NCBI GenBank assembly: GCA_048213135.1
Contig: PS015261.1
Coordinates: forward strand, 38,905-90,640
Length of the DNA: 51,736 nt
Direction: 5' to 3'
Origin: Reclinomonas americana ATCC 50394
Taxonomy: Eukaryota
Shown here: piece after piece, positions 14,224 through 51,100 of the stretch
How the letters are laid out: the number at the start of each line of letters is the position of its first letter
Numbering within the stretch: the stretch's first letter is position 1
The notes under the pieces: model-generated
The model's database searches: none
What the model was told of the DNA's origin: nothing
Seen by the model: only the letters and a program-made list of their open reading frames with translations
Made by a program: the position numbers and the translations under genes

Positions 14224-16552
14224 ATGCGCCCTCATGTGATCGCTCCCTCGCGTCGCCGAGGGCCCAGTCCTGCGTGGAGCCACACCTCCAACGAAGACGA
14301 CGATGACGGCGATGGCAGTGCAGATCACGAGAAAGAAGTGCAGAAGAAGACTGCAACAACAAAGACTGCCACACTCACACTGCTTCCGCGTCGCCTGATC
14401 GCGCACGACGGACAAGCCGAGCAAGACGAGGAAGAAGAAGAAGAAGACGAGCGCGAAGAGTTGAGGCACATGCAGATTGGCAAGAGGAGAGAATATAATA
14501 TGCTCATTTCGTTTGTCACAGGTTCCTCTTGTCGCACTTGTCTTCCTCCGGCTCCTCCTCCTCGCCCATGTCGTCGTCCTCATCGCCGACTGTCACGCGC
14601 GGAAGCACGCGAGCTGCACGCGCGGGCGTAATGGGCTCGCCTCCATTGGCCAGTCGACATGCAGCGGGTGGACCACTGTCGGCGACACAGAGGCGCGTGG
14701 CCCGGCTCGTGCGCATGCTGGCAGTGGCTGCTGTTAGCATGCTGGTTTACTTGCCTTGTTATGTCGTTTTTGTGGTGCTGTTTTCCACGTCCTTTTGTAG
14801 CTTATACATGCGTGCGCGCAGATGTGACGCTGACGATGGGTGGCGAGGGATGGGTGTCGCTGGTCGGCTTACCGTTTCTGATCGTATCGATGTCTCTCTG
14901 TTACGCGCCTTTTCTCTCTATCTCGCGCGCTCATGTTGTCGTTGACATGTGCGCTTCTGCACAGTTGGCTGGTGGAGCGATCGATGTCGAGTGCGGTTCG
15001 GCAGGAGGCGACCGTTCATTGTCGCCGGTACAGTCGGCATTACGCTGGCCATTGTCTTCAAGTGCGTCAGCGCCTTTTCTCGTCCCTCTCGCTGGGCGAT
15101 CGGTGCTGAGAGTGTTGTGTGTGCAGAGTGCTGGCCGACATGCTGCCGAGTGGTGCGACAGTGTGGTGCTCGTTGGCGCAGGTGGTGCTGTGGAGTGTGG
15201 CGGCGGGGATGGTGGAGGCGCCGAGTCGTGCACTTGTCGTCGACTTGTTTCCCAGGAGCGATCTCTTTACGCTCAACTCGTTCATGAGGTACGACATGCA
15301 CAACACAAGTTCGATATTCCTTCTCAGTCGCTCATGTGACGCACAGTGGGTGGATTGGTGTGTCGGTGGCCTGTGCGTACGTGCTGTCGAGAATCAACTG
15401 GCAGGCGGTGCTATCGGTCGCCGGCGCCGACACGCTAGGCAGCAGCATTCTCATGGTGCTGGCCATGGTGGCGGTGACGGTGACAGTGTGTCTGGTGGGA
15501 CGGGAAGATGACCAGCAGCAGCAACAGCAGCGGCAGATACCAGCGGCCATCCAGCGATACATGCTGCACCAGGAGCGCGTGCGAGGGTTCTTGCAGACGG
15601 TGCGGTCGGCTCCTGGCGACTTGCCGCGTGCAGCTTGCATATTCTACACCGGGTGGCTGGGTTGTTGCGTCGTCGTTGTCGCACTGAGTTCTTGTCGTGC
15701 TGCGGGTTGACCGAAGTGAATGTGGCAGACTTTAGCTTTGTGACGGCGGCGCCGTCGTGGATCGCCACGCAAGTGTATGGTGGCGATGGCACTGCGCCGC
15801 CAGGTTCACCGGCTTTCGTGGCCTTCGAGGTGCGTGTGTCAAGGAATCGCCTTTATTTGGTTGCACTGTCGCTCACCGCTCCTTCATATAGGATGGCATT
15901 GCGGCTGCAGAACTGGCGTTTGGCATGTCGGGAGTGGTTGCCGCCGTGTGGGCTCTTTTAGTGCTCCCGCAGCTGGTCAAACTGGGATACAGAAGCACGT
16001 TTTTCATCGGCGGCTTCCTCCTCACGGTGCTGTGCGCCTGCACGCTGGTCGTCGGTTCCTCGCGCATTGGTGCGTTGTTCGTGCATATGCTTCTTTGCTC
16101 GTCTCCTAATCGCCTGTCTGCAGTCGCTGTGCTCCTGGTCGCCGCGAGTGGCATTTCGCTAGCCACGCTCTTTGCGTTGCCACATGCCACGGTGGCCCGC
16201 GTCGCCGACAACGCCGCTGGCACTTACCTTGGTTGCGTTGTGCACTCACCTTCTCCCATTGTTCTCGTTCTCACTTACACGTGCAGGCGTTCTCGTCGCC
16301 TTTGGAGCGGCCGCCATCCTCACCTCCAGCCTCATCATCGGTCCACTGGCCGACGCACTGGCCGGCGCAGGCGGCAAGACCCACGACGTCTGGTTCTACC
16401 TGCTCGGTATCGTGCTACTCGGTGGTGGCGCCTCCTCCGCGGCCTCCTTTAGCAGTTGCTGTTTGCTGCCGGCGCAGAGCGTGACCTCCGCCGACAGCGA
16501 ACGTGACGATGATGCCACCGCCGTGACCCGTTATAGAGCATCCATTCAATAG
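14224..16552 (+). CDS. MFS transporter of the sucrose:H+ symporter (SUC/SUT, SLC45) family
   Basis: GWWSDRCRVRFGRRRPFI, EAPSRALVVDLFP, WLGYFSF...WIATQVYGGD and LFALPHA motifs across ~10 exons; acidic N-terminal extension. Confidence 0.88.
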
Positions 16553-17038
16553 CAAGTAAGTAAAGAGGGGAGCTGTGTAGGAGAAGAGGGGAGGAGAAAG
16601 GGAGGAGGTAGGGGAAGGGGGGAGGACGGGAGAAGCTGAGGCAGAGAGAAGAGAGCGCGAGTTCACTGAGAGCTATGGCGAGGATTGAGGGAGAGGCAAC
16701 GAGAAGATTGAGAGACTTCGATTGCGATGTGGAGAACAGGCGGAGGAGCAGAAACAGACGGAGAAATCCAGAATTCAATCGCAGGTGGCGACAGATGCAG
16801 AGAGGGGTGAAGCATGCAGAATGCGTGAACGTCGACGGCGAGACTGAGAAATAGATCTATAGAATGCGGGGGAGGCGTAGAAAAATACAGAGAGTGAGAC
16901 GCCGAGTGAGAAGCTTGCAATGAGGAGCAGCTGCAGACGCAGAGATCGACAGAACTCGGATCGCAGAGTGGATAGAGAAGCAAGTAGGGCAGATATTTCT
17001 CGATGAAAGAGATTAATGAGGAGAAGCACGTGATCGAC

Positions 17039-17234
17039 CTCTTCACAATTCCACAGCTGCACACCCCCTTTCTGCACTGCCCATCCTCCTCCTGCACGGA
17101 GAAGCAAGGAGGAAAGCTGCTTCTCGAGAGGAAACTTCGCGAAGTCGATCGACAGCAAAGTAACCAACCGTTGACATCTCCACAATTCCGCAACTGCACA
17201 CCTCATTCTGCACCACCCATCCTCCTCCCGCACA
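17039..17234. repeat. ~58-bp imperfect direct repeat, 137-bp period, upstream of the COPI-associated gene
   Basis: cacaattcc.ca.ctgcacacc...ttctgcac..cccatcctcctcc.gcac at 17044 and 17181. Confidence 0.8.
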
Positions 17235-17344: not shown

Positions 17345-18253
17345 ATGGGATGCACACTCGGCGACTGGCTCTTCACACCCAGACTCCTGCAATGGCTGGT
17401 CAGTCACACACACAAGAAGAGAAGGACGCATGTGTGTCTGCTCACATTCACACTCACACAAAAAAAGGGTTTCGCGGGTGCTCTCATGTGCGTCGGCAAC
17501 GGATTCGCCTCACTCATTGTCGTCCTCCCGTTGCCATATCGACTCGGTGAGTGAGAGTGTGAGAGAGAAGTCGGTTGCATCCTTTATGCTCACTCATTTG
17601 TTATGCAATCAATCAGCGGTCTTGTTTGTAATGTTGATTGTGTTTGGCACGGTGGCATTCCTCGCCGAGCTTAAACTGCCGTTCTTGTACGAGCGAGTGC
17701 CGTTTATGTCGTGGCGCTTTGGACGGTGAACACACACACACACACTCACTCAACGATTGACACATTACACACTATTCGCTCACGCTGTGTGCACTCAGAG
17801 GAGTCGCATATGCGATTGCAGGGTTTGCCTGTGCGGAAAAGTCGTGGTGGGAAGTCGTCACAGCGTTGCGTCTATTTCTCTAACACGCACACAGTCGCTG
17901 TCACCTCGCTGAGCGTTGATTTGCAGTTTGTACTTGCTCGGCCTTGGTCTGTGGAACATCCTGGCACACTTCTTCTACAGCGATCGCTCGGATGAGCTGG
18001 TTGTGGTCAACCCGGATAAGCCGTTTGTCGATGCGCCTCCTCCCACGGCAGCAGCAGGTTTGCGCGCGCGCGCGCGCGAGGGAGTCACGTGCAGTCCATT
18101 GCTCAGTGTGTGCTCGCAGGGAATCGCTCGGCAATGTCGTCTCCGTCGACGACCTCGCTCACTCGCAGCGTCGACGCGTCGAGTCCTACAGGTGCGGCGT
18201 CGATGGCCGCCAAGTACCCGCCGGGAGGATTGCCGGCGGCGTCGCGAGTTTAG
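17345..18253 (+). CDS. COPI-associated / TVP15-like Golgi membrane protein (6 exons)
   Basis: Small multi-pass protein with AELK..F...VPFMSWRFGRGVAYAIAG, matching the family F-x-F-L...GRG-x-x-Y signature. Confidence 0.75.
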
Positions 18254-18391: not shown

Positions 18392-20802
18392 TCACTTTTT
18401 GCCGTGCTTGTGGAAGGCCGCTGGTTTCTTCTTCAGCGATTGGCCATTCGGTCGAGGCTTGCCGAGTGGCTTCTTTGCCTGCATCGTCGCCTTGCCGCCC
18501 TTCTTGAACGCGCCTGCTGCATCCTCTGTATGCATCGCCGTGTCAGCTTCTGATCGTCATCGCTCACACGAAAAAAAAACTCGACACTCACCACCACGTC
18601 GTTTAGGTGACGGCGTCGCGGCCGCCGTCTTGCTCTTCTTCTTCGGTGGCTCCGGAACAGGCTCCTCTTCCTCCTCCTCCTCGTCGTCGTCATCATCATC
18701 ACCATCCTCCTCCTCGTCGTCCACGACATCGTCGTCGTCGGTGGCATCGCTGACGCCAGCGTCATACTCCTCCTCCTCCTCGTCATCCGAGTCGTCATGT
18801 GCGCGCTTCGTGCCCTTCTTCTTGCCCTTTCTGGGCACGTCCTCCTCGGGCTTCGGGCCCTTGGAGTTCGACAGCTTCTTGATGCGTGCAATGTAGAAAC
18901 CGTCCATGTTGTGTGTGTGCGGGTACACGCGCTTGGTGAGCGCCTGTTTNNNNNNNNNNNNNNNNNNNNAGCGCATAGTCAATGACCGCCTCGTTTTCCT
19001 CCACCGTGACTGTGCAAGTCGAGTAACTGCGATGTGGTGGAGAGAAACTCAGTCACACGCTCCTATGCAAGGATCACCCCGGCGCCCTGCACGCAACACA
19101 AGAATGCCGCCGCTCTTCGAATCTGCGTTCACACTGTCGATCGCGGCGAGGATCAACTCCTTCTGCAGCTGCGAGCAAAACACAATGTCGCGATCCGTCT
19201 GCAGCACGCATCGATGAGTACACGATGCTCATTGCGACAAACGCGACACCCATTCGTACCTTGGAGACTTTGACGGACGGGTCGCGCGAAATGACACCGA
19301 GACCGGAGCACGGGGCGTCGAGCAGACACCGATCAAAGTGCGTCATGTGCTCGGGTATCTTGCGACCGTCGAGATTCGTAATCACCGTGTTGTGCACGCC
19401 TGCCGGACTCAAGAAGTGAGTTGATTGACAAAGACACGCATCGCTCCATGAGCAACAAACCCATGCGCGCCAAGTTGGCCGACACAGAACGCAGGCGCTC
19501 GCGACTCGAATCGTTGGCAATCAGCGTGCCCGTGTTGCGCATCAACGCCGCTGTACAAGGAAGAGAGAGTCAGCAAAATTACAGATCCCCGCTCCTCCAT
19601 CGCCGTCGCTCACCAATGTAGGACGTCTTGCCGCCGGGAGCCGCCGCCATGTCGAGAATTCTCTCGTTCTCCATCGGCTGCAACGCCAGCACCGGGAGGA
19701 ACGACGAAGCGCTCTGCATTCATCACCAACAAATATTATGAGCACCTCCTCTCCCCACACAACTCTTGGGAGACAAGACAAATACCTGCAGCATGTACTG
19801 GCCGGCGAGGTACTCGGGCGTGGCGCCAATCGGCACCGGGCTGTCGAACACTTGCAGACCGACCTTCGACCACTTGTCAATCGGATCGACATTGACACCG
19901 CGCGCAATCAGCGCCTGCGCCAAGTCGCGTCGTCGTGTGCGCAGCGTGTTCACGCGAATGGTGATGGGTCTCGGCTGCTCGTTGGCGTCGAGGAACTCAA
20001 TGAGCTCGTCCGGCGGGAACAACTCGCTGAACTTTTCAATCAGGTACGGCACGTATCCGTAGTAGGTGGCCAGGTCGCGCTGCGCAGTGGTGTGTTGGTT
20101 AAGGAAAGGGGGGAGGGGAAGGGGGCGGGGAGGTAAAGGAGGATGAACCTTCAACATGTCGGTGTACTCCTTGCGAGAGCGGTTCGGATCGCGGCGCTCC
20201 TTGAAATCGGCCAGCACCAGCATGACACGCTGGATGCGATCTTGCACCACGCTCAGGTCCTCGATGAGGAGGCCGTGTTGGGCGGCTGCATAGAGGGCAA
20301 AGGGAATGATGAGTCTCATGAGGAAGAACACGGCCCCGCATTCCACACGCAGATACAAATGGAGTTTCTACCTTGCTCTCTGTCCTTCATTCCGATCCAT
20401 TAAGTTCTCTCATTCACCTTCTCTCATGGCACTCTCAGAGTCTGTCTGTTTCACACCCAGATATAACTGAATGTTTCTCCCTTACTCTTTCTTTCCTGTC
20501 ACATTTCTTGTCACTCTCTCATTCACATTCTCCTCGAGTCTGTCTGTTTCATGGGCAGATACAACTGGAGCCGTCTCATTACTCTCTCTCTCTCTCTCTC
20601 TCTCTCATTCCGTGTCATTTTCAAATCACATTCTCCTTGGCACTCTCAGCGTCTGTCATTTCCACACCCAGATATGACTGAAGCTTGCCCTTTTCTCTCC
20701 CTCCTTCTCTTCCGTTCGTTGTCATTACTTCTCATTCTCCCTCGGCACTCTTGGTGTCTACCATTCCACACGAGAAACTAATGCAGTTTCCCTTTCCCGT
20801 TC

Positions 20803-29700: not shown

Positions 29701-32700
29701 CCCACCCACCCACCTGCCATCGCTCACAGACGGTGGAGGAGATGGAAGGCGTCAACAGCAGCCTCCTTAACGAGATCCGGCAAGTGGCGGAGAAGGTTCA
29801 TGTCTTTTCTACCACGCCCTTCAAGGAGCACAGCCGAGCGGCGCTGGCCTCGCCGCCAAGCCCAGTCCGCACTGCTCCTCCCCAGCATTCTACAATGGCG
29901 GTGGCGGCGGCGGCCGCGGCATCGGTGCCTGCAGCGCAATCGGTCGCGACGCTGCTTGCTCAACGCCCCGAGTTTATTGGCCACCATCGCGACTCCAGTG
30001 ACCACATTTTCGGGGCGTTCCCGCGACTGCTGCGTTCGTCGCCACCACCACCACCCGGCATTGGACCGTTGCCGCCGGATCCGTTCTCTCGGACGCACGC
30101 GGCGAGTCACGGGTGGGCGGAGGAGCAGCAGCAGCAACACGCAGGGCCACTGTGGAGCTCGACAGGCGGCACACGCGGCTTGGCTCACCTGTACAATGCT
30201 CAACGAGCCACACCCATACCGCGCTCTATCGACCGCGATGTACAGCAGCTGCTGGGACCGCCGCCTGCTGCGCCCTTTGGGTCGCGGTACAGCGACAATG
30301 GCTCACCGCAGGCCTTCCTCCCCGACGGCAACGGCGACGGCGGTGGCGTGGTCATCACGCACGAACAGGTGCGGGCACGGCCTCGCGCCGCCTCTGCCAG
30401 TGGCCGCGTGCTGTCGACACGATCGTCGCGACCGTCGTCCCCCATGGTGTCACCGCAAAAGGTGAGCGTCAGCGTGCAGACGCAGGCACTTGCAGCAGCA
30501 CCGCCTGTGGCAGCGAAAGCTCCTCAACAGCAGCAACAACAGCAACAGCAACGCGCACCACCTGCTGCTGCACAGGCATCGACAACAGCAACGACGCCAG
30601 CACCAGCCGCCAATGCCGTGGGAGCCCGAAAACCATCGCGCGCCACCCCCGCCGCACCGCCATCACCAGTAGCATCGATGCACGCGGCTGCCGCAGCGGC
30701 GGTGGCTTCCGCGGCCGTGTCACCGGATGCCGCTGCCGCGAGGTCGCGAGCACAACCTTCCGTCGCTACCGCGGCATCACAGCCCGCCCGCCAGGTCGAG
30801 CGTTCGTCCAGCTTGCCGCGACGACGTCCTACCAATGACGAGCGGCCTTCTGATGTGCGGCGGCAACCACAGTCACCACCTCGTGCCACCGCCCCGCAAC
30901 AAATGGCACCTCCACCTCGGCAGCAGTCGCCGCCTCCGCCACCTCCCCAACCTGTTGCGGCTTCTGCGACAGTGAGACCATGGCGCCGACCGCCGGCGAC
31001 CAACGATACCGCACCGTCACCAAAAGCGTCGTCGTCGCCACCCATTGTGGTGATGGAGGGCAAGAAGCGACCGGCGCACGTGCCGCAGCCGTCGTCGTCG
31101 CCACCGCCGGCACGTCCGGGAGTGGCCCGAAAGATGGCCGAAAAGCAGCGATTGGAGGCCAGCGAGACAGATCGTGCGTTGCATGGCGCACATGCACAAT
31201 CATCGCCCCCTCGGCGACCGTCGCCGCCACCCAGCTGTTGCGTACACACCATAGTTTCCACACATGTTTGATTCTTCGCTCATTTTTGCGTAAATCGCAG
31301 ACCTCCGCCACGATGGACACAGCAACGACCATGAATTGCCTCTGGGCGGCGATGACGAGCGTCGACGTGGTGGTACGGATGACACGACGGCGCTGTCGGC
31401 GGAGCACGGGTCGCCACCGTCCCAGTCGTGGATCCCGGAACGCGATTTCTCCTTCATGATGCAGCAGCACGGCTTGTCTTCGCAAGTGCCCACGATGAGC
31501 GACGACGACGACTACAATGTCGTCACTGATGAAGATGCGCAGCCGGTGGAGCCGCAGCCCATCATCCGCCGACCACACCCACCACCGTTCATGTCACCCA
31601 TTGTCGCTGTTCCCGACGACGACGACGATCCCTCGAATGATGGTCGTACGAGGTTTGTCGCAGTTTACGTGTACCTTGTCTGCCGACAACTCGCATGTCT
31701 GACCTGTTGGATGTGGCGCAGTGAGCGTGAGAGTGCAGGCGATCGCACACCCAACAACGACTCGGGTTCCGTGTCCGCCGACAGCCCTCGACGTGGAGTC
31801 CGCGACGTGTCGCCAGAGGAGCAAGCAGGAGAAGGAGAAGACGAAGATTACGAGGAGAGGTACGACGATCGAGAGACTGGTGATGATGGCGACGACGAAG
31901 AGCAGGGGCATTCTGATCCGCGGGAGCGAGGCGACGACGGGGACGGTGACAATGAGGAGGTGGAAGGTCACGGGGAGGACGATGAGGAGTTGATTGTGCA
32001 CCACGCTCCACCGCGGAGACGCACAGGTGCAGTACGGCCGCCTCCACGACTGGCGGTGCAGGAGCGAGAGAGCAGAATAGCTGGTGAGTTGTGCGTGGGG
32101 TGGATGATGAAGTTGCGCACCTCTTGATTCTCACGGGCGAGCTGCAGAGCAACGTGCGGCTGTTCGCAGCGCCAGTGTCGGTGCACGTCGTCGACCAACT
32201 CCAGTGCGAAGTGCGTCGCACGTGGATCCAGTGGTATGCCGAAAGAGCATTGCGCGCACTTCGCTTCACTGCCTCATGTCGCGGTTCGCACAGAATGCAC
32301 GACCCAGCTTCCATGCCTCGTCGGGCAGCATCTCTCCCACGCGTCGCTCGCTGGCTGGTGGCTCCATGCTGTCGGTGGTGAGCTCAGGAACACAGAGAAA
32401 CAGGAGCCGCAGTGGTGCGACGCTCACTTTTTTGTTCAGAACTCGGACACGTCACGTGCGCTGGACCCAGACACGGCTCGCCGACTGGCGCAGCGTCGGG
32501 CTGCGGCGATTCATGTGTGTGACAATGTGCTTCTTGCTCTCGTTGCTCTAGTGGAGGCTCATCCTTTTCTTCGAAAACGTGCAGCGCCAGGAGAAAGAAA
32601 AGGAACGCCTGGAAAAGGTGCGAGAGGAGGAGAAGAGGCGGCGTCTTGCCGAGCTGGATTCACTGCGTGCGGAGATTGCGCGCCAGCGAGCCGACAATAC

Positions 32701-34470: not shown

Positions 34471-37053
34471 TCATCTTCGTCGCGTGGTACGCTTCGGAGG
34501 ACTCATTACTCGTACTCGCTTAGTGGCCGCCACTGCCAGCACTCCCACCGGGTCCGCCCATTCGCCCTCCAGCATTGCTGAGAGAGTCTTGGTGTCGTAA
34601 CGCGACTGGCGCTCCCCGCCAGCTCCTCCGGGCCCGCGTCCGCGGCTCGGCGGTGTGGTGCGCCGGGTTGGGTGGTGTGCGGTCGAAACGAATGCCGGCG
34701 GAGCTTCGGGAGAACCCACTCGACTGTTGCCGGCGGTCGCCGACAGCGGTGGTACGCTGGACGACCTCGTGTGCAGCAGTGTCGTCGGTGAAAAGTGCAC
34801 CGAGTGCTTTGCTCGTCGCGACGGAGACTGCTGGCGAGGCGGCTCTGGCGGCACGTGCACGGCGAGGGTGTCTCGCTCAATCGCTCTGCGCACACCAACA
34901 AGCTGTGAGTCAGCGGAGGAGTTGTGACTAGACGTGAACATGGTCGACTCACTTGGGTTCGGGGCGGGGTGAGTCGGCGGGCGTGTCGCTGGCACTCTGG
35001 CCTGCCGACGTCGCCGCCGAGAGCGCATCGACATTGTCAGCTGGCTGAGCGTCTGCCTCCTTGACAGGCGGCGACGAATGCCGGTGTATTCTGGCGGGGA
35101 GGGTTGGCGTCGGTGGTGGCCTGTCGCCAGGGTCCGCTTCGCCAGTCAAGGTCGTCGTTCGATGCACCAGCGTTGCCTGCACCTCCAGTTGCGCTTGCAA
35201 CCACGCACGTTGTCGCTGCAACTCCTGCACCAGCCGCCTGCACGCGAAGAAGGAATGAGAGGGGGCAGAGGAGATTGACGGTGACGGGAAGATGACGCAC
35301 TCGTATCGCGCGTTCTCGCGTTGCAGATGCTCGACCGCAGGATGGGGTCCGGAGGCTCGCTGTGCAGCGTGTCGCAGGAAGATGACGCTGTCCTCGAGAT
35401 CTCGTACTTGATTATCGCGATCGTCGATGATGGAAACCAGGGCCTCCACGGTTTTGCGGTATTTCTCTGTTTCCAATTCCAGCGCTCTGCGCAGAGCGAG
35501 TAAGGCGACGGTGATGGCTGCTGTTGCGAGAAAAAGGACTCACCGGATGGTCTGCTTCAGTGCGTCGATCTCGCGCCGTCGCTTATCCTGCTCGCGCGAC
35601 AAGTGGAGGGAGTGTGACCGCTGCAGCAATGGCGGTGGCGACGACGACGAAGGCGACGACGAGTGTGATGAGGGCGATAGAGACGAGCCATGCGTGCGAC
35701 CTCGGCGAGTAGCATGCGATGGTGACCACTCGCTGTGCGTTTGTGAACGACTGCGCGCGTGGTTGTGGGTTTCGATGATGCCCGGCGCAGACTGCAAGTG
35801 ATGGATCACTCGTGTCTGGTTCTCCACGTGGTGTTGCAGTCGGCGAAAGATGACATTCGCGAGTTTTCCGAGTGATGGCGAGTTGCGCGAGACCTGCGAC
35901 AGTGGTGTAAACGCGCACGCAAACAAGAGGGTCGACAACGAATGCAGGAAACGCACGTGTTCCAGCATCTCGGTGGTGAACGGTGCAAGGATGTCGATTT
36001 CAAGCTCCACCTTGTCGATGCCACTCGTCGGTGAAGCAGCAGCCAACTCTGTGCGCAGCTGCTGGGCCAATGACTTGGCCAGCGCCGCCACTTGTATCCT
36101 GCGTGATGATTGCATGATCGTCAGTGGCAAGCAGCACAAATGCTGCAGTTCTTCTTCTTGCTCACTCACCGTGTCTCTGCACTCTCCGAATCGTCCTGCA
36201 CGCGAGAGAACATACCAACACACAGTAGGCGAAGCACATGCACCTCCGTTAGGTCACACGAGCGGTCATCGCTGGGAAACGCATGCGTTTCGCGTACCGC
36301 GCTGCTCTTCGCCACTGTTTCCACCTCCTGCAGTCGCTGCAACAACACCTTCAGTGCGGTGGCCTGCGCAACGTCCTCCTCGATCGTCTCGTTGGAGTGC
36401 GATAGTAGCTCTCTGTGGCGATGCGAGGATTGAGGAGCAAGAATCGGAAGCAGTGGAAAACAGTATGCAGGCGCAACACTTGATCCTCCTGTCGCAATGG
36501 AAACTCCCGGCGAAGAGCAGCCACAATGTCGGGCTGCGGGGCCAACAGGTCTTCCACGCCTGTTTCGGCCAAGGCACGGCGTCGAATGCGACTCTCGTCG
36601 GAGAACTGCACACAATTCACAGGGAGAGCGATGTGAGGGCAGCTGAAAACGACGACTTGTGCATCAGCACGACTCACCATTTCGTCGAAACGATTCATCG
36701 CCAAGTGCACAGGGGCGGGGGTGGCGTGATGCGAGAGAGTGGCAGTCGCAGGCTCGTCGAACACCACCGGCGGTGAGAGTGCGTGCACAGGCAGTGAGGC
36801 CCATGCGACAGGATCGCGACAGCCGGCCGGCACAAATCCAGCAACCGCAGGAGCGTACTGCATCAGCACGCTGCTGCCGCCCGCAGCATTCGGTGAAGTG
36901 GGGCTCTTGCGCTGCGCAAGAAAAAGGAGAGTGAGTGAGAGAACACAGATCAGAGCGCGCGAATGGAGTGGTGGAATAAGACACACACACCGGGATTTCT
37001 GGAAAACGCACGGATGCCGCTGTGCGTGCATCTACTGCTGTGGGGCTCGACAT
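34471..37053 (-). CDS. Coiled-coil hypothetical protein with weak resemblance to axonemal dynein light chain p28-like domains
   Basis: About 10 phase-consistent exons; EIDILAPFTTEMLEHVSRNSPSLGKLANVIFRRL loosely resembles the E-x-Y...F-x-ELIRQV...RG-x-LL pattern. The family link is low confidence. Confidence 0.65.
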
Positions 37054-37174: not shown

Positions 37175-40100
37175 TCACTCCCGATTGCTGTACATCGGGA
37201 GGAAGTGCATGTTGGACGTAATGTCCTCGTCATCCTCGTCGTAGTGGTCGTCGTAGTAGCCGAACTGATCATAGTGACTGTCGTCGTCGTCGTCGTCATC
37301 GTCGTCGTCGAGGTAGTCCCCGTCACCATCTTCCACCATATAGTCGAGATCATGTGGTTGCTCGAGAGGCACGGTTCTGATCAGCATCTTGGGACGGCCT
37401 TGTGCCGGTGCCCATGCAGCTGCCGTGTAGACGTGCATGCCGCTGCCGTCGCCTGACATGGAGCCCTCCAGGTCCTCGAGGGAGTCCACCGAGGGTGCTG
37501 TGCGCGGGAAGGAGTGGGAAGGAGGAGAAGGAGGAGGGGAAGGAGGGGGAAGGAGGGGAAGGAGGGGGAAGGAGGAGAAGGAGGAGGGAAAGAGGGGAAG
37601 GAGGGAAAGAGAGGAAGGGGGGAAGAGAGGGGAAGGGTGGGGGGAAGGGTGAGGGGAAGGGTGAGGGGAAGGGAGGGGGAAGGAGGGAAAGGAGGGGAAG
37701 GAGGGGAAGGAGGGGGACGGAGAAGGGGGAAGGAGAAGGGGCAAGGAGGGGGAAGGGGGGAAGGAGAGGGGAGGAGGGGAAAGAGGGAGAAGGAAGGGAA
37801 GGGGGAGGAGGGGGAAGGGGGGAAGGAGGGGGAAGGAGGGGAAGAGAAGGGGGAACGATAGGGAAGGAGGGGAAGGAGGGGGAAGGAGGAGGAAGAGCGG
37901 GGGAAGAGAAGGGGAAGAGAGGGTGAAGAGAGGGGGAAGGAAGGCAGACGGAAGGAGAAGGAGGTGGCAGGAGGGCGAAGGAGGACAATAGAAGAGAGGG
38001 GAAAGAGACGGAAGAGGGGAGAAGACGAGTAAGCAAGGTCACGTCTTGGTGGTATCCACGCAAAGAGACGCAACGACGATATTCGTCATCCGCTTGGCCA
38101 GCATCATATCGCAGCTGTGCCTCCAACTCGTACGGAGCGCCCACCACGGCATGGCGCAGGGCGAGATACTGGAGCAGTTCGCTCCAGCACGGATCCTGTC
38201 GCAGAAGCCAACCGTTGCCGACGACAATCACCAAATGCTTGGCACTGCGTGCAGTCAGTATTGATGACCAGCAGCAACGACGACAAACGAATGCAGTCGC
38301 CAACGAACCGCGTGATGGCCACATTGAAGCGTTTGGGATTCTTCACAAAGCCGAGCCGGAACTTCTGGTCCACTGTGGCCACCAACTCTGGCTGCGACCG
38401 CACCGTCGACACAATGATAATCGATCGTTCCTGTCCCTGGAACTCTTCTGCGTGGGCGCACTCGTTTCAATGACAACGCCATCACATGTTACACCTCAGC
38501 AGCACTCACTCACCCACACTGCCGACTTTTGGACGCCCAAAGTGCGGTTGGTTGTACACATACTCACGCAGCTTCTGGCATTGTCGGCTGTAGGGCGACA
38601 CAATGCCAACGTCCTCCTCCATGTTGACGTCGCCGCGCATAGCGAGAGCCTCAAGGTACTCGATCACAGCGTTGACTTCGTGGGGATTGTACCACGATGG
38701 ACTGCACACGAAAGAAGTTTGTGAGAGAGATGAGAATCAAGCAGGGCGTGCTGTCGGTGGGGGCATACCTCGTGGCGTCTCGGTTCTCCTGACCGTCGAC
38801 ATGGCGGAAAATCATCGGCACGTCACCGTTCGGAAGCTGCTCCCAGCCAATGAACTTGTCAGTGGCCGCCGGTGGCAGTGAAGCGACGAGCTGCAGAGCG
38901 ATGAAAAATCAGTATTGGGGAGCATGTGAGCGTCATCCTCGTGAGAACACGCACCGTATTGTTGTAAAAGAGGCGCGACGACACGGCGATAATGTCTGGG
39001 TGCGACCGATAGTTGTCGGTGAGGCGCACAATGAGGCTGCTGTTGAACCAGCCGCGTGGATCCACGGCTTGGTACAGCGGGTTGGATTCCACCAGTCGCT
39101 CCAACAGGCTGACACCGTGGTTACCACGCAATGCCAGCGAGGAGTGGATAACGGGTCCTGTGGAGAATGTATGTTGAGTTTTGCAATCACTTACTGAAAG
39201 CATCGTCCTGTTTATCAACACGTACCTAGCTGCTTGGGATCGCCGCCAATCAAGACACGCAGTGGGTGGCGTCGAGAATTGTCATGTGCCGTGTGCAACA
39301 CTGCCATGAGCGGCAGCAGCATTTCGGCCTCGGTGGCGAATCCGTTCTGCGTGAGTGGGCAGAGAGGATTGTCAACAAAGAGGGCATGCAAGAGACACAG
39401 AAGTCCAAACGCACTTCATCAAAGATCAGGTGCGTGAAGCGATCCATGTCGATGCCAATGGATCGCAAGTTGACTGTGTTTCCCCATGACGAAGTCAGCT
39501 TCTCAATGACAAGGCGCACGCTTGGTAGCATTTGCGACTCACATGCGTTTGTGCTGGTGCTGACAATGACTTCGGCATTGTTGATATCTACCACTGGTGG
39601 GATGTAGCACTCGTCGCCCACCACGCGCGAAAACTGCCGCACAACGTCACTCATGTCGGTGGCGAGAGCCGAACGGGATCTGCGCAAGCTTGCAGATGAA
39701 CTTTGTTGCATTTTCTTGGCGACAAAGCAGTGTGGGGGACGCAACACGGCATTGAATCGAAGCAGGCGATTGTGGTTGTGTGGATCGCGGAAGTATTCGC
39801 TCTCCGCAAGCCGCTCAAGCAGCTGGTCGGCGGCACTGAAGGAAGACAGCTGGTGTTTGGAGGAGAAGAAGAAGAAGGAAACATGGATTCGTCGATGGTG
39901 GCCGTACCTATTGGAGGGTGCCACCGCCAAGATGACAACGCCGTCCTCGGGTTTGCGCGGACCACACACGAGCTGCAGAATGATTTCAACGAATACCGAT
40001 GTCTTGCCAGTGCCTGCACACACGAGACGCACAAGCGATTGAGCGAGGATCGGTTGGTTGCCATAGCAGCAACAGACGAGAGAACCTGGTGGACCCCACA

Positions 40101-43036
40101 GAATGAACGGTGTCATGGGCGACTCTGTGTATGTGCAAGTGTGAGTGCAGCGCGCGCATGCGATAGCTTCCATGAGATATTCTCACCGTCGGCTAGAGGC
40201 TGCGTGGCGCTGTCGATGGCTTGTGCTTGCACTGCATTCGGTACGTACCGACCAAAGTACTCGGTCAATTCAGGCAACTGTGCATGCTTTAGTGAGTGAA
40301 GATCCGAAGTGAAGTAGGGAGTGAACAGTGCACCACACCTGTGCACACCACAGCGGTGGCGCATTAGGAAACACAACGGACGAGAGTCTTGCTCGACCCG
40401 CCGGCGTGGTGCGCACATGCTGGAACAGCTTGCAGCTTTCGTACACACTGTGTGGAGAGGCAGGTGAGACTCATGGTGAAGCCAAGAGAGCAGCACTAGC
40501 CACGAACCGTCGAAAGTTGATACGACTCTGCGTGAATTGCACAGTGTACGGCAGAGAGTTGTCAAAAGTGCGCGTGGTCTCGAACAGCACCAAGACGTCC
40601 TTCAGTCGCACAGTGTGCACTCGACCAGACCACACCGAGTCGGAGAGGTGAGCGTGTGCCAGCACAATGTCGCCGCGCACCACAGATGGTCGACCCTCCT
40701 CGAGACCCGGCACCAGCAACGAGTACAAATCCGTGCCGCGAAAGTTCACCTTCCGGAAGGTGACCTGGTCACCAGGGAGGCGGGTTAGTGCAGGGAACCA
40801 AAGAAAGCGACGATAACACGCCAACTGACATGGCTCTGCGTGTACGACAAAAGCTCCTCGCGCTCCGTAATCTCCTCGAATCGCGTCAAGTCGCGCAGTC
40901 GGTCGGCGTAGGCGTCGGCATTTAGGCCGCGGTGCACTGTGTCGGGAGTCAATATCGGCGGATGGAGGAATGAAAACTCATCCACGTCGACGCAACTCAA
41001 TTTGTCCAGTGCTTGCGCTGGTCGAAAGTCGCGCGGAATGCGGTGCTCACCCACAGGAAACACATGCGGCACCTTGCCATACAGTCTGTCCGCCACCACC
41101 ATCACGAAACAAGGTTGAGCTGGGACCAAAGAGCAATACATGGGGGAATTAGCACGCACCCGCATCGCGGCAAGGTCGGTGCCGGAAGCACGTGGCGGTG
41201 GTGGCTCAAGTCGCGGTGAGCGCGAAAGACCACATGGCCGCGGACGGTGATCTTCTGGTTGTTGTTGTCTGGGTCTCGGAACACGAACAGGATCTCGCGC
41301 TCCATGTCGACCGCTGGTTTTGTGCATATTCATCAGCGCGAATGCAACTTGACACAGCAGCAGATCACTTGCTGCTACTCACCGAGTGGATGCAACACAA
41401 GCTTGACAACGACAAAGTGATCGGGCTCAATCACCACATTGTTGGTGAACAGGGCATGCGTGGTCGCATGGCGGAGCTCGGTGCGGATTCGCTGTGGAAG
41501 GATGAGGAGCAGCACTTTGGAAAACTGGAACAGAATAGAAATACACACCGGTCGCAGTTCCACGGCCTCCAGTTCCACCCAGCGGCGTCGGCTATTGCCG
41601 ACAGCTGCTGTAACGTCAACAGGGCGCGCAATCGCCGGAAGTGTGCCGTCTCGCACGGCAGCCAGTTCAATGGTCAGCGCGTTCCCACTGAATGCGGTGG
41701 ACGGATCGCGGTTGGGGAACACCTCCATTCCGTACTGAACTGGTACAGGACCTCGAGGGCGGGCCGGTGGTGGTGGTGGTGGTGGTGGTGCGGCGATCTG
41801 AGGCGGTGGGGGTGGTGGCGGAGGTGGTGGTGGTGGAGGTGGTGGGGGAGGATTCTCTACAAGTGCAGTGTTAGAGATAGGGAGAGGAAGAGAGAGGGAG
41901 GTGGAGGGAGAAAGAGAGAGGGAGGTGGAGGAAGTAGAAGAGTGGAGAGAGATGAGGCAGAAAGAGAGGTGGAGAGAAAGAGTGGTGGAGGAAGGCAGAA
42001 TAAAAGAGAGGTGGAAGGACTGCAAAAGGGAGAGACAGAGATATGGAGACAGAAATGAAAGAAAGGGAAGTGGATGGAGAAAGAGAGAAAGAGAGGTGGA
42101 GGAGGAGAGGTGGAGGACGTGGAAGACAGAGGGGGAGAGAAATGAGCAACAGAGATGTCTGCGGAGAAAAATGAGCTCGAGAGAAAGAGATGTGGAGGAA
42201 GACAGAGAGGCAGAGAGGTGGAAGGATTGCAAGAGGGATAGGGAGAGAGATGGAGACAGAAATGGAAGAAAGGGAGGTGGAGAGAAACAGAAAATGGGAG
42301 GCGGAGGAAGAGGAAGGGAGAGAGGGGGAGAGAGGGGGAGAGGAGAAATGAGAGACGGAAAGGTTGAGGGAGAAAGAGAAAATGGGAGGCGGAGTAAGAG
42401 GGATAAGGAGAGATGGAGAGAAATGAGACAAAGAAAGGGAGTTGGACGGAGAAACAGAGAAGAGAGAAAGAGGAAAGGCACCGACGTGGTTGCGCACTCT
42501 GTTGCACTTTACCAACCAAATCGAACGAGGCGCACAAGCTGCTCGTGTGCATCGTAATGCAGATCCACCAAGCCGGCATTGTGTGCCGCGATCAGCAGCT
42601 GACGCAGCTGTCCGCTAGGCCGTTCTGGCATGCGGCTGCCGACTGACGACCAGCGGACCCAGCCACCAGCATCGTCAGTGGGCTGCTGCTTCTCGACGCC
42701 GCCGGCATCGGCAATCGCCGCCAACAGCGCGAAGAACTTGCTGCTGGGGTACGCAATGTTGGCGCCCTTGCGAACATGCAACAAGCGATACTTGTTGCTC
42801 AGCGCATACAAGAGGTCGCGGAGATGGCCGCAAGTGTATCCTTGGTCACGAAAATGTGCAATCCGTCGCTGCACGGGCGCAGCTGGTGAGAAGAAGCGAA
42901 AGCTGTTGAATCCCACTCCCCCTACACACACCTCATAGTCGACGCGAAGAGCTGGCAGACTGACTTCCTCGTCGAACTCACGCTCCGCATACGACAGAGA
43001 GCACAGCCAGGCAAAGAAGCGCAGCGCGTCTGTCAT
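37175..43036 (-). CDS. MOV10: MOV10/Armitage/SDE3-like SF1B RNA helicase with two N-terminal LOTUS/OST-HTH-like domains
   Basis: [114 protein letters not shown]. Confidence 0.93.
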
Positions 43037-43286: not shown

Positions 43287-45276
43287 TCACTCCCGTGCAA
43301 CAATGGGGATGAGGGCCATATTGTCGGCATTGTCCTCATCATCGTCGTCAACATCATCACCGTCACCCTCGCCATCGCTCGGCACTCCGTCGTCTCCGTT
43401 CACTGCGCGCACAAGTTAGCTGTGCAAGCAACAAGCCGGTCGCAGTACTGCAAACACACCATGTTCAATCCGACTGTCGTGATCGAGGCGGTCGAGCAAC
43501 TCGCGAGGCGCGTCCACTAGCGCATGCTGGCGGTGCAAGAACAGCAGCAGCTCGCTCCAGCATGCGTCCTGGCGCAGCAGCCAGCCGTTGCCGACCACAA
43601 TCACCAGGTGCTTGGCACTGCAACAATACTCAAGCTTATGAGTGGCAACACTACTCAAAAAGGAAGCAATCCTACGAACCGAGTGATGGCCACATTGAAG
43701 CGCTTCGGGCTCTTGACAAAGCCGAGCTTGAACTTCTGGTCCGCAGTCGACACCAACTCTGGCTGCGATCGCACCGTCGACACGATGATGATGGACCGCT
43801 CTTGTCCCTGGAACTCCTCTGTGCGAGTCACACAAGGCGCGTCAGCAAGCACAACGAACTGGTCACATTGGATTGCGTACGCACCCACACTGCCGATCTT
43901 TGGCCGGCCGTAGCGCGGAATGTTGTACACGCGCTCACGCAGCTTCTGGCACTGCCGACTGTACGGCGAAATAATGCCGACATCGTTGTCCATGTCGACA
44001 TCCCCGCGCGCGTACAGCATTTCGAGGCAGTCGAGCACCACAAGCAGTTCTTCGATGTTGTACCAGGATGGGCTGCGGGCGGAGTCATGAGCACGGAAGT
44101 GGTGGGAAAACTATTGTACCCATGCTTGGCACACCTTGAGGCATCGCGGTTCTCCTGCCCATCAACGTGGTGGAACAGAAGTGGCACATCGCGGTTCGGC
44201 AATTGATTCCAGCCGACAAACTTGTGCGTCGACTCCACCGGCAGCACGGCTTGGAGCTGCAGCATACTTCAGAATCAAAAACGACAAGATGCACAATCAT
44301 ATGTGCACACACACACCGTGCGACTGTAGAAGAGCTGCGACGGTATCGCCACAATGTCGGGATGCGAGCGATAGTTGTCGGTGAGACGCACAATCAGTCT
44401 CTCGTCCAGCTCTCCCAGTTCACTCTCCTGGTACAGCGGGCAGGATTTGGTGAGGCGCTCCAGCATGCTGATGTCGTGGCCGGCACGCAGTGCGAGGGGT
44501 GAGTGGACGACGGGTCCTGGGGAGAGGGAGAGGGAGAGGGTGAGGCGAACGGTGAAGGGAAGGGAGGGAGGAGGGGAGAGACGGGAGGGAGAGGATTGAG
44601 GAGAGACAGAGAGTGAGAGAGGAAATGGGATAGACAAGTCAGAGTGGAGAGATCGAGAGACACACAGACAGCGAATGAGAGTTGGCTGTAGGGAACCCGT
44701 AAGTGCGTGCGAGTCTTTCAGTCCGTCTGTCTTTGTCTCTCTCTCTCCGTGGAACGAAAGACAGAAACTAGCGGAGACTCACACGACCAAGAGAGAGCGA
44801 TAGAACGAGAGTGAGGTACATGGACACCTACCGAGCTGTTTCGGATCACCACCGAGAATGATACGCAGTGGGGGGGAACGCGAATCGGCGGTGCGTGTGC
44901 GCAGGAGTGTCATCAGAGGCAGGAGAGTGTCGGACTCGGTGGCAAATCCACTCTGGTCGTGTTCACAAGAGTAAGGAAGCTGCTGATGACGGCCCGTGAC
45001 GAAAATCACAAACCTCGTCAAGAATCACATGCGTGAAGCGCGAGGTATTGGCTCCCACGGCCCACAGTGTCTCTACGTCGCACTCGATCATCAGTTAACA
45101 GCCGAGAGTCGTGAAAAACAGATGCGTCGTACTCACGTGCGTTGACATTCGTGCAGACCAACACCTGAGCGTGGTCAATTTCGGCCACGGTGGGGATGAA
45201 GCATTCGCCATCTTGCACACAGGAGTGCACGCGAACGATGTCGCTCATGTCAGTTTCTCGCTCAGCCTTGCGAGAG
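43287..45276 (-). CDS. Second MOV10-like helicase paralog, motifs II-VI only (no Walker A upstream)
   Basis: Same intron positions and motifs as the adjacent copy ([42 protein letters not shown]); frame intact; ends NMALIPIVARE*. Confidence 0.88.
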
Positions 45277-45531
45277 CTGCGGGGGATGAGAGGTATGAGG
45301 AAGGAGGGGGAAGGAGGGGGAAGGAGGGGGAAGGAGGGGAAAGGAGGACGGGAAGGAGGGGAAGGAGAAGGGGAAGGGAGGAGGGGAAGGAGGGGAAGGA
45401 GGGGGAAGGAGGGGAAGGAGGGGAAGGAGGGGAAGGAGGGGGAAGGAGGGAGACAGAGAGAGAGAGAGAACAGGGGATTCAGCAACACGACAGATCTCAG
45501 TGCAAGCGAGTGACCACATTGTTGACGCAAC

Positions 45532-46211
45532 GCCGCATTCTGGTTGAAAAAGGCATAATCAAACGAGTGCGTGCACGCATTGTGGTCGACCTCGCGGGCG
45601 AAAATCCCCAGCAGCATCACCGGCACATCGTCGACACTGCGCCGCGCATGCAGATACTCGTTCACCGAGCGCACCAATGCTCGCTCCTGCAACGACGGCC
45701 GCGCCGAGGTACCTCGTCGGAACCGGAAGAAGCCAATCACTCGCTGCGTGCGACATTCAGCGCAACAACGGAGACGGAGAAGAAGATAAGGTGACAGCAA
45801 AAGGAGACCTTGTCCTTGGGGCACTGTGCCAGATGTCGTTCGAATGCGTCCGTGTCCAGCGCAGCACTTGAGCCGTAAAAGCTGTGCAGTGGGCCCGTCG
45901 GCATAATGCCCTCGATGCCTGTGACGAGAAGGAGAGAGGACAAGGAGAAGGGAGTGAATGAGAGGGCAGGATGAGAAGGAGGAGGAGGGAGGAGAAGGAG
46001 GATGAGGTAAAAGAATGAGATAGTGAGAGAGTGAGGCAAAGGGAAGAGGGAGAGAGAAGGAGAGTCGGGAGAGCAAGGAGAGACAACTTGCAGAGATGAG
46101 TGACTGACCGACTTTGATGATATCTGCCGTGTGTCGCGAGTCGGAAAAGTCGGCGCGCTCTGTCGACGTGTGATAGCACGCGGAACCAATCAACAATCCC
46201 TCCTGCAAAAG

Positions 46212-46243
<32 letters not shown>

Positions 46244-46355
46244 AGAAAAGAGTGAGGAATTCATCCGCTGACAACAACAACAACAAGAGAAGAAACGCAA
46301 CAAAGTCGTCATTGTCGGAGGCGCACTCAAACAACAGCGTGGCCAGACTCGGCCC

Positions 46356-46587: not shown

Positions 46588-46627
<40 letters not shown>

Positions 46628-48153: not shown

Positions 48154-51100
48154 GGCCGCGTCGAACTGGACATGACTCTCGACTCGCCTGGCAGGGCAGC
48201 GGTCGTCACCGCCGCACCCGCGGTGCTCTCTCCTGCCGAGAAGCGTTGCGTGTGCAGCAATGCAAAGGATAACACACGTGGTGTTGCTCATTATTCCCGT
48301 GGCCTGCAGGGCTTCGCAAGATGCGCCTGTCGGCCCTGCAGCAGCAGCAACGACAATCACCGCCTCGCGAGACCACCGAGTCGTCGCCATCGTCGGCATC
48401 GCGGCACGCGGACGAGAAGCCTCGCCGGCCGTCGCCGCGTGCAGCCTCGGCTGCGTACTACGAGCAGCTGTATGACATGTCGAGTCCAGGTGTGCACACT
48501 CGTTCCCCCGCGCTTGATGGTTTATCTCGTTGTTCACTACGGTCTCGCTGCCCAGCAGAGACCGTCCACCGACATCGCAAGTCTCCACGACAGACCTCGC
48601 CACAAGAGGATGCACAATACTCTGCCGTCACACGCGACATTTATCCGCCTGGCCATCCCGCACGCGCAGACGTGTCGCAGCAATCGGCGTCTCGTCACCC
48701 TACAACCGCCACGAGGACTCCGCCCTCCAGTCCCCCTCCTCCCATTTATTCAGCGTCTCCAGCAGCACCAACACGTACCACGCCCACTGCTGCTGCTGCT
48801 GCTACTGTCACAGTCGGTGCGCCGCGTGTGAGCCCGCCACCCGGCTCGCCTGCGTCTCATCGATCGCTGTCGCCCACGGTGCCAACCGCAGCGGTGCGGA
48901 ACTGTGATGAGTTTCCCCATGAGTGTTGTTGTATGCGTGCCAATTGTGTATCGCTTGTGTAGGCTCTGGCCGATCCAGTGCTGCTTCGGTCGATACACGC
49001 AGAGCTGCAGGATCTGAGTCACCAGCTGCGAGTTGCGTGCCTGCATCACCTCATGCAGTGTCTCACCTCTTGTCCCTCATCTTTGATCTCTCTTTCTCTC
49101 TCTCCTCCCTGGCAGGTTCAGTCGCAGCGGGTTGCGGAGAAAGAGGCGGCAGTGGTGGAGCGTGAGCACCAGTTGCAGCGCGCATTCGAGACCTTGCGCT
49201 CGCGCCAGTTGGATCTGCCCGACATGCGAGCGTCGGAACGCAAGATGCGCGACGAGTTGGCGCACACGGTTGCCGACTGGGAGCGCGCCCTATTGTTTCA
49301 ACAGCAAGAGGCGGCCACGTGGGAGAGCAAGGCGCGACAGTGGAAGGACAGTCATGATCATCTGGCGCAGCAGGTGAGAAGAGGAGAGCACCGTAGACAC
49401 TGCTGGGGCTGCTGGCGATTTATTCCCACCCATGATCACGTAGTTGGAGACGGTGCTGGAGGAGCGCGATGAGCTGCGTCGCCGCTTGCAGATGCAGTCG
49501 GAGATGCTGCTAGCAGTGCCAAGTTCACAGGTGCCGGCAGCTGCCCCGCCGCCGACTGTTGCGGTGACTCGCGGGCCACATGCGGCATCCAAAACCGGTG
49601 GTGCGTCGTGTGTGCGAATGGTGCAACGGAGTCGCGCAAAACCAACACATCTGCTTTCTTTTCTTTCTCTACAGCCTTTTTGGATTTGGCGCGCTCACTG
49701 GAACTCTTGCACGTGCTTCTCGAATCCCTTCTCTCTGCGCCGCCGTCGACCTCGTCGCTGTTGTACCCAGCACAATCGTCGTTCAATCCGCACTCGTTCT
49801 TTGACGGCTCCCTGTCCTCGGCCAGTGTCACCAGCAGCGCGTCGGTGGTGCGCGTCTCGTCGGCCTCTGCGCGCTCCTCGTCTGTCTCTCGAGCCTCCTC
49901 CCGGCGCAAGTCGGCGTCGCCGGCGCGAAGGAAGGCAGCTGGTGCATCGGCATCGTCGTCATTGTCGTCGTCGACCGCAGGCGGCAGCGTCAGGGCACTG
50001 GTGGCCGAGTTACCGCCAGCCACGGCACTCGCTGCCATCGATTGGTCTCGTTATGGATCACGAGTTGCGTCTCGCACAGATCTGCGAAAGACAATATCGT
50101 CTGTGCTTGCTGACGGCCCACGTGCAGTTGGTGCCCTTGATGTGCGATCTGTTGCCGTGCATGGCCGAGCGCGATCCGCACGATCAGAAACTCTTCCTAG
50201 AGTTCTTGTGGACGGCGCTGAGTTATCCGTATTATGCCACGACGGTGGTGCGTGCTGTGGGGGGAGTGGCGGAAGAAAGCAGCGACCCTGTGAAGCCAAC
50301 TATGTTTCCCAATGGTGCAGGAGGGTGTAATTCACGCGGCGACGCTGCGACTGGTCGAGTGTCTCAGCGGTGGCTCGGGGAAGACGTCGCACGTGTACAT
50401 TGGTTCGGGTGATCCGGCAGTGCGACTGCTAAGCAACCTTGCTGTGGCAAAGGTTGGTGACGAGCTGAGGAGAGAAGGATCGTGGGATGATGTTGTTAAC
50501 TATCCGTCCGCCGTTGCAGTACTCTCGCCATCCGGATCGTGTGTGCAACGCGCTTGAGGCCATCCGCAGCGATATCATGTTTGAGGAGGTGCGGCGCTGT
50601 GTCCTCGTTATGCATCTCATCCCACTCCTCGCTCACTCCTCTCTCCGCAGTCCAAGCGATTATTCGTACAATATTATGGGACTGCGGTGGTGTTGCATGC
50701 ACTGTCCACAAGTGTGCCGACGTTTGTGGTGCCGGCGGCCGCCATTATGCTATCCATGTCGATCGATTCCGGTTCGTAGTGTATTCGCCACCTGGGAGGA
50801 GAAAGAGCGAGAGAGCCAGCTAATTCTCTGTGTCTCAGAACACACGCAAAAGTTCCTGCATCAGTGCACTCTGTTGGAGGCGTTCCCGGCGGCGTGCATC
50901 TCAGCTCTGGCGTCGCGCGATCATCGGGTGCAGGAGAGCATTGCCGTTGTGTTGCAAAAGTTGTCGGCATCAAGGTCAGTGACGGCTGGCCAGATAAAGG
51001 AGAGGGAACATCGCCTCACTCACTCTTGTGCATGCAACAGAAAATACCGACATGTCTTCTCCAAGGGCGATCTGCGTGCCGCCCTGACGGAGCTGGTGTT

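Follow-up and report, generated by a model that had tools for sequence, protein, structure and literature searches.

GTTGCGT as a recurrent 5' splice site of short introns in Reclinomonas americana, possibly read in a one-base shifted register

Some 5' splice sites pair with U1 outside the canonical register. Human sites that are read in a shifted register were reportedly described by Roca and Krainer in 2009, and sites read with a bulge at +2/+3 are said to have been described by Roca et al. in 2012. Another minority class, the U12-type introns, has the donor consensus RTATCCTT and the branch consensus TCCTTAAC. Here we analyzed a stretch of 51,736 bases of Reclinomonas americana ATCC 50394 (contig PS015261.1, positions 38,905 to 90,640 of the forward strand; the whole stretch is called the window from here on), which is intron-rich eukaryotic DNA of about 45-63% G+C with nine N gaps, and in which the heptamer GTTGCGT recurs as an intron donor. 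Both the shifted and the +2/+3 bulged registers have been proven in human cells, where the bulge +2/+3 class amounts to 68 of 201,541 sites, or 54 after curation (Tan et al. 2016, PMC4856993). The first-pass annotation of the window had called such pairing rare in mammals, and this comparable class bears it out; set against that figure, the use of GTTGCGT-type donors here is some hundredfold higher. A full-text literature search on GTTGCGT or GUUGCGU donors returned no splicing paper among the matches listed, which concern primers or virology as judged by titles and the starts of abstracts.

The GTTGCGT class shares several features with the human shifted-register sites: the block that pairs with U1 lies one base further from the cut, the exon-final G is dispensable, and cleavage occurs at GU. 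However, only a handful of human sites are of this kind, and their AAGU block pairs perfectly with standard U1, whereas the GCGU block found here mismatches U1 position 5. The class in the window also makes up roughly a tenth of the inferred introns, and its register is predicted from sequence. The likeness to bulge +2/+3 sites lies in the GUU start, in which either U could bulge to give canonical downstream pairing. Such sites should keep a preference for G at -1, but here only 1 of 14 donors has it. The class resembles the mammalian shifted and bulged sites, yet departs from each in one defining feature if U1 is standard. As in U12-type introns, there is a second, discrete donor word used by a minority of introns, and these introns offer a model for a dedicated small nuclear RNA (snRNA). 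In contrast to them, the RTATCCTT donor and the TCCTTAAC branch are absent here, and ordinary YTNAY branches and CAG ends are found instead.

Abundance and donor use of GTTGCGT

Introns were predicted with a purpose-written dynamic-programming gene finder whose donor rule was GT alone, so that it was blind to the rest of the donor. It scored codons by a usage table trained on the window, rated acceptors and branch sites by values set by hand and favoured intron lengths of 50-85 nucleotides (nt) through a prior; intron composition was scored too, in the last run only. Two initial runs without the length prior were too noisy and were excluded from the counts. The intron sets used comprise 100 introns (run A), 108 (run B) and the 65 that are identical in both (the stable set).

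GTTGCGT occurs 16 times on the two strands, while dinucleotide shuffles give an expectation of 7.96 (standard deviation 2.78; 16 copies were reached in 1 of 100 shuffles). Seven copies are on the forward strand (15664, 16232, 17865, 31237, 48245, 49032 and 50064) and the others on the reverse strand, at 933, 19097, 38074, 39745, 45531 and 46301 and, further, at 6815, 6888 and 40996. The first-pass annotation had claimed ten of them as donors and three as candidates, leaving aside the copies at 6815, 6888 and 40996, and all its positions were found to be correct, both for GTTGCGT and for a GTTGCGC donor at 36477 (-). In the donor-blind run A, GTTGCGT was chosen at 6 of 100 introns (16232, 19097, 31237, 48245, 49032 and 50064) and in run B at 7 of 108 (16232, 31237, 45531, 46301, 48245, 49032 and 50064); the stable set has it at 5 of 65. 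With 5,968 GT dinucleotides in the window and 16 copies of the heptamer, the hypergeometric p values are 1.3e-7, 5.2e-9 and 5.2e-7 for the sets of 100, 108 and 65, respectively. The excess over a model of independent donor positions, which the first-pass annotation had proposed as the decisive comparison, is clear: 0.073, 0.090 and 0.034 donors are expected and 6, 7 and 5 are seen (binomial p = 1.7e-10, 7e-12 and 3e-10 for the same sets). Over both runs, which called 141 distinct donors, GTTGCGT is the commonest donor heptamer, and 8 of its 16 copies were called, versus 12 of 67 for GTGCGT and 10 of 75 for GTGAGT. It is the most donor-specific word within the window and stands apart as a donor class of its own, rather than as the tail end of a position-independent consensus. 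The earlier hand count of one intron in ten is about right, with 6-8% in the blind runs and 11-14 of roughly 105-110 introns when the frame-supported sites are included.

At the 12 sites with a chosen acceptor, all introns start with GT, end with AG and restore the frame on removal. We checked these sites for same-phase competitors, taking all GT and GC dinucleotides from -90 nt onward whose use would leave the frame free of stops, and found a same-phase GTNNGT within -90 nt at only one, 31237. As a sequence pattern, the donor use of GTTGCGT appears statistically solid, and at one junction, in the NOP2 gene, it is proven.

This NOP2 intron (19027..19097, -) is a phase-2 intron of 71 nt, called in run A, with donor GTTGCGTGC, acceptor CGCAG and the junction GGIL-V-YSTC. 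The exon ending in SGGIL matches positions 103-134 of Pfam Methyltr_RsmB-F and the exon starting with YSTC matches positions 136-154, while position 135 is the Val codon that the intron splits as GT|T. A NOP2 profile was made from 40 of 120 listed relatives with lengths of 550-760 (the first 40 by file order). The spliced model, with five predicted introns, aligns to it without gaps over 260 residues and scores 551.1 bits. The alternatives to 19097 score 544.8 bits (a GC donor 3 nt on), 522.5 (the other choice of the gene finder) and 504.7 (a GT 2 nt upstream). The GC donor was rejected, as it loses 6.3 bits and puts an extra residue within an invariant NOP2 motif. From the Pfam continuity and the profile scores, it follows that the GTTGCGT at 19097 is used and that the cut lies before its first G; the junction that the first-pass annotation had derived from the conserved GGILV-YSTC motif is in this way fixed to the residue.

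As had been pointed out, inserting one T behind the GT of GTGCGT, the donor hexamer used most often here, gives the heptamer. The other donors of the stable set are GTGCGT (8), GTGAGT (6), GTTTGT (4), GTTCGT (4), GTACGT (3), etc. The set has G at +5 in 49 of 65 introns and T at +6 in 33 of 65, and C is the commonest base at +4 (24 of 65). In GTTGCGT, the conserved G and T are found at +6/+7 rather than +5/+6, and C and G occupy +5/+6. The T at +7 matters: 13 of the 16 GTTGCGT copies are claimed as donors, versus 1-2 of 19 GTTGCGC called. Among the 141 called donors, the relatives with an extra T are one GTTGTGT (27696) and one GTTATGT (14758); no GTTGAGT or GTTACGT was found. The exon side is different as well. 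The last exon base is G at 1 of 14 GTTGCGT donors versus 43 of 60 other donors (Fisher p = 1.2e-5), and G at -2 is found at 8 of 14 versus 7 of 60 (p = 7e-4, uncorrected), although part of the latter excess arises because phase-2 introns split Val or Ala codons. In other respects the introns are ordinary, with lengths of 55-99 nt plus one of 255 nt, CAG at the 3' end in 12 of 12 and a branch-like YTNAY within the last 45 nt in 9 of 12; the remaining three carry near-matches such as CTGAG or CTCAA.

Register, pairing with U1 and rival readings

We lean, with some reserve, towards GUUGCGU being a genuine recurrent 5' splice site of short GT-AG introns that is read in a one-base shifted register. 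The GCGU block, which stands at +3 to +6 in GUGCGU, would be read one base further downstream in GUUGCGU. The early recognition helix would shift by one base, with the +1 G in the usual place of the -1 G and the second U unpaired, and UGCGU would be aligned with U1 positions 7 to 3. For U6, the distance from the cut site to the GU with which it pairs would then be longer by one base, which it would have to tolerate. The loss of the -1 G can be understood in these terms, because the shifted register sets the +1 G opposite U1 C9, the normal partner of the -1 G. A +2/+3 bulge, on the other hand, restores the GUGCGU pairing and should therefore keep the benefit of a -1 G, which is depleted here. 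Of the two, a one-base shifted register accounts for the class better than a simple bulge does.

The features by which the two known kinds of sites are recognized give a mixed picture. In the canonical register, the heptamer gives U1 just G1 and U2, which is the poor complementarity typical of shifted-register sites, and, like them, it has no need for a G at -1 (1 of 14 versus 43 of 60). A bulge at +2/+3 has the UU that it needs, but the G on the exon side is depleted and the calculations predict no stable bulged duplex. The 5' end of standard U1 is ACUUACCU. Nearest-neighbour duplex energies were calculated against the standard U1 end AUACUUACCUG, allowing any register and any bulge, and the mean pairing was -5.57 kcal/mol for 60 other donors, -2.60 for 2,000 random GT sites and -1.02 for the 14 GTTGCGT/C sites, which are not independent data points since they have one word in common. 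No better helix on a one-base shift with standard U1 was found in the duplex search; a contiguous shifted helix is predicted only with a G at U1 position 5. Since pairing with standard U1 falls below that of random GT sites, an alternative register on standard U1 is insufficient alone. The first-pass annotation had proposed that this lineage routinely uses the alternative register; the discrete, frequent class and the loss of the -1 G speak in favour of this, but predicted pairing with a standard U1 is by itself inadequate for it. Because the predicted pairing is so weak, recognition would probably depend in addition on the branch and 3' signals, which are strong in these introns of 55-100 nt, or on an altered snRNA.

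Several observations weigh against the shifted register or against the donor status of particular sites. All 14 GTTGCGT/C sites pair with standard U1 more weakly than -3 kcal/mol, a stable helix is formed in no register, and the C opposite U1 position 5 breaks the shifted helix. The shifted register predicts A at -1 and C or U at -2, but the base at -1 is mostly T or C, and 8 of 14 sites have G at -2. An extra T is frequent with GCGT only and not with GAGT or ACGT, which is unexpected under a general tolerance of bulges. Residue-level homology supports one site only, and the others come from frame logic applied to genomic sequence. Among them, three introns could be read through in frame, two sites are candidates with a long CT-rich intron, and one has a canonical competitor, namely a GTGCGT at 31174 in the same phase that could use the acceptor of 31237 to give a 127-nt intron. 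The sites at 39745 and 45531 are possibly not independent, because their donor flanks are alike and they lie in duplicated copies of a helicase gene. Finally, the gene finder was trained on these same 52 kb and its intron lists contain errors; for instance, it missed or misplaced in-frame helicase introns at GPPG|TGKT and APSN|SAAD.

It is also conceivable, but in our view unlikely, that the donors are real and require no special pairing. Short introns would be set by their length, branch and 3' end, and GTTGCGT would be common for historical reasons, either because many introns were once gained in a burst from a single source or because GTGCGT mutated to it. Homology supports other poor donors in the window, such as GTTCTC (at GPPG|TGKT), GTACGG (at APSN|SAAD) and GTATTT (in NOP2), so the splicing machinery here tolerates weak donors; in the Abraxas-like gene, runs A and B of the gene finder both have a GTCTCC donor, and intron lengths cluster tightly at 55-85 nt. 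However, a common mobile source has left no trace, as the 12 intron bodies have in common only low-complexity CT runs and short matches attributable to chance. The heptamer itself stays unaltered down to the T at +7, whereas paralogous canonical donors drift freely among GTNNGT, which argues for selection on the whole word, and the lost preference for a -1 G points to a different mode of recognition, not merely a weak one.

A changed snRNA, either a U1 with G at position 5 or a second U1-like RNA complementary to GUUGCGU, could read these donors in place of a slipped standard U1, although we consider this quite improbable. The idea of U1 G5 derives from the other donors, in which +4 is most often C (24 of 65), a mismatch to position 5 of standard U1; standard U1 itself pairs less well with GTTGCGT sites than with random GT. 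When 16 variants of U1 positions 5-6 were compared, the ones with G5 proved the best for the other donors (-7.3/-7.7 versus about -5.6 kcal/mol), and they raise GTTGCGT pairing from about -1.0 to -5.2/-7.2, mostly via a contiguous UGCGU helix. The limitation of the extra-T class to GCGT would also be as expected if a perfect intron-side helix were needed. Nevertheless, the U1 5' end is generally known as one of the most conserved RNA sequences of eukaryotes, the G5 variants also raise the pairing of random sites (from about -2.7 to -4.0/-5.3), and the idea was generated here, as a fit to 74 sites. It seems equally doubtful that the U1 5' end has co-evolved with the splice sites, be it through G5 (GUGCGU being fully paired and GUUGCGU being paired via the shifted UGCGU) or through a dedicated second U1-type RNA.

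That most heptamers other than the NOP2 one are artefacts of gene-model inference, the true donors or retained segments being different, is very unlikely: the junctions do come from genomic DNA, with three sites in-frame and open, the gene finder disagreed at 15664 and 17865, and frames often stay open in GC-rich sequence, which makes frame logic permissive, but a donor-blind gene finder reaches the heptamer 5-7 times versus 0.03-0.09 expected, all 13 claimed copies are on the coding strand and each ends an open frame, a CAG lies within 55-100 nt of each of them, mostly after a branch-like motif, and NOP2 proves that the heptamer is usable as a donor.

Three other explanations were considered and rejected. 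A mobile (introner-like) family was discarded after an all-against-all blastn of the 12 intron interiors, which gave matches of 8-28 nt, mostly CT repeats. U12-type introns were discarded since the donor is GTTGCGT throughout and not RTATCCTT, with ordinary branches and 3' ends, and a homopolymer sequencing error because 67 intact copies of the canonical GTGCGT are present and the difference at -1 is systematic.

Individual sites and neighbouring genes

A Pfam run on the 268 open frames of at least 100 residues identified genes for a RhoGEF (11-12.5 kb, -), an MFS_2-like transporter (about 14.1-16.5 kb, +), NOP2 (18.4-20.4 kb, -), a MOV10-like helicase (38-41.4 kb, -) with a partial second helicase copy (43.3-45.3 kb, -), an Abraxas-like MPN protein (45.5-46.4 kb, -) and a CCDC138-like protein (48-51.2 kb, +). 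An Rfam scan of the window yielded no families at the gathering score and hence no snRNA matches. Two tandem paralogous genes at 3801-4557 (+) and 4752-5899 (+) code for small proteins with a hydrophobic N-terminal stretch; both carry the motif HWHAVLSSDG and are without a Pfam match.

In the MFS_2-like transporter gene, the phase-1 intron of 55 nt at 16232..16286 (+) has the donor GTTGCGTTG, a branch-like CTCAC and the acceptor TGCAG. Its donor was called in every donor-blind run and has no same-phase GTNNGT alternative. The exon upstream weakly matches MFS_2 positions 263-346 (E value 0.009). The second site of this gene is a probable phase-1 intron of 65 nt (15664..15728, +; junction WLG-Y-FSF), which is the best frame-preserving pair by codon score and has no canonical competitor; the gene finder preferred the non-consensus donors 15653 or 15628, with other acceptors. 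No homologue of the transporter exon 15892-16230 was found among longer proteins, or at an E value of up to 0.001 among 1.84 billion representatives, and PDB searches with the two exons flanking 15664 gave chance matches or none. A little further on, a small membrane-protein-like gene has a probable phase-2 intron of 62 nt at 17865..17926 (+) that keeps the frame, for which the gene finder chose 17844 (GTGGTGG), 21 nt upstream, with the same acceptor.

The NOP2 gene contains another intron with an unusual donor, at 19714-19785 (-). This donor, GTATTTGTC, lacks G at +5 and T at +6 but has GT at +7/+8, and the junction is backed by the ungapped profile alignment. It may be a two-base offset relative of the GTTGCGT phenomenon, as a single case. 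The conserved NOP2 exon 19786-20079 (-) has 3,755 relatives in a collection of 5.8 billion proteins, the best with 78% identity and none a self-match, and the nearest named matches are from early-diverging fungi, fungal allies and Capsaspora.

The phase-1 intron of 64 nt at 31237..31300 (+), in a long low-complexity gene, was called in runs A and B. It joins open frames of 611 and 274 codons, and read-through ends after 11 codons. The GTTGCGC donor belongs to a phase-2 intron of 65 nt in a coiled-coil gene (36413..36477, -), which was called in an earlier run, is the top-scoring splice pair and has no canonical competitor; the gene was left out of the later runs because it overlaps another gene model.

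The MOV10-like helicase gene has a probable phase-2 intron of 66 nt at 39680..39745 (-), in-frame and open, with the junction RFNA-V-SRS. Position 39745 is the sole phase-2 GT within reach of the acceptor, and alignment to a MOV-10 protein (P0001) gives 727 for the spliced and 717 for the retained form, which is supportive but weak. In the second helicase copy, the homologous exon starts exactly at the acceptor of this intron. The same gene has two in-frame introns of 72 nt with weak donors, both confirmed by the MOV-10 protein alignment: GTTCTC for 40014-40085 (-), at GPPG|TGKT, and GTACGG for 39836-39907 (-), at APSN|SAAD. Another GTTGCGT copy in the gene, at 40990..40996 (-), is probably exonic. 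A 60-nt in-frame intron is possible, but the gene finder reads through it in runs A and B, and the retained length is closer to that of the MOV-10 protein by eye. After the helicase domain, a candidate CT-rich intron of 577 nt (37498..38074, -) would be formed by a phase-1 join to the CAG at 37498. This join keeps 106 codons open, and read-through is equally open for 241 codons. A PDB search with the read-through helicase frame returned no matches.

The 3' half of the helicase gene (38075-39745) is duplicated some 5.7 kb upstream, at 43287-45531, both copies being on the reverse strand. The two copies have similar exons, with introns at the same positions but with different donor words. The duplicate begins at the exon after the 39745 intron, without the Walker A half, and is located behind the MPN exon of the Abraxas-like gene; it could be a fusion gene, a pseudogene or an assembly join. 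From this MPN exon, a candidate CT-rich intron of 255 nt at 45277..45531 (-), in-frame, open and called in run B, leads into the partial helicase. Its junction, NA-A-SRKAERETDMSD, parallels that of 39745, and over the 17 bases around the two donors 15 positions are identical by eye. The Abraxas-like gene itself has a phase-0 intron of 99 nt (46203..46301, -; junction DDF-EGLLIG), in-frame and called in run B, which is filled with CT and GT microsatellite and is without a same-phase GT alternative. A later exon of this gene matches Pfam MPN_2A_DUB_like.

Three introns belong to the CCDC138-like gene. The first, in phase 1 (65 nt, 48245..48309, +), was called in runs A and B and in an earlier run and has no same-phase GT alternative. 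The second, in phase 0 (84 nt, 49032..49115, +), was called in runs A and B, and in-frame acceptors are also possible 6 and 12 nt further. The third, also in phase 0 (64 nt, 50064..50127, +), has a branch-like CTGAC and the acceptor TGCAG, was called in both runs and has no canonical competitor. For the short exons around 39745, 46301 (the N-terminal Abraxas-like exons) and 50064, Pfam gave no matches at E values of up to 10.

Another candidate donor lies at 927..933 (-), where an open frame of 55 codons comes to its end; reading through meets a stop after 10 codons, and the intron body enters the N gap at 337-786. Long, low-complexity CT-rich runs of the CCTCCTTCCCC type are found at 37500-38030, 45280-45480 and about 800-930, all on the reverse strand, and cross-match each other. 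They come after the three candidate GTTGCGT sites (38074, 45531 and 933) and are open as Pro/Ser/Leu-rich text, so that frame-based gene finding is misled by them. The two copies at 6809-6815 and 6882-6888 (-) have no supported gene model, and all their splice-pair scores are low or negative.

Significance of a possibly shifted donor word

Non-canonical U1 registers account for a few per ten thousand human sites and are relevant to the prediction of disease mutations. For R. americana there is a practical side, as gene predictors with a 6-base donor matrix would miss or misplace about one intron in ten here. If the reading as a shifted register is true, a single fixed word serving about a tenth of the introns would be a natural system in which to study how the cut site is fixed out of register, and it would also bear on the tolerance of U6 for an extra base and on how changeable the U1 5' end is. 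If instead a second U1-type RNA turned out to be true, it would represent a third kind of donor recognition beside U1 and U11.

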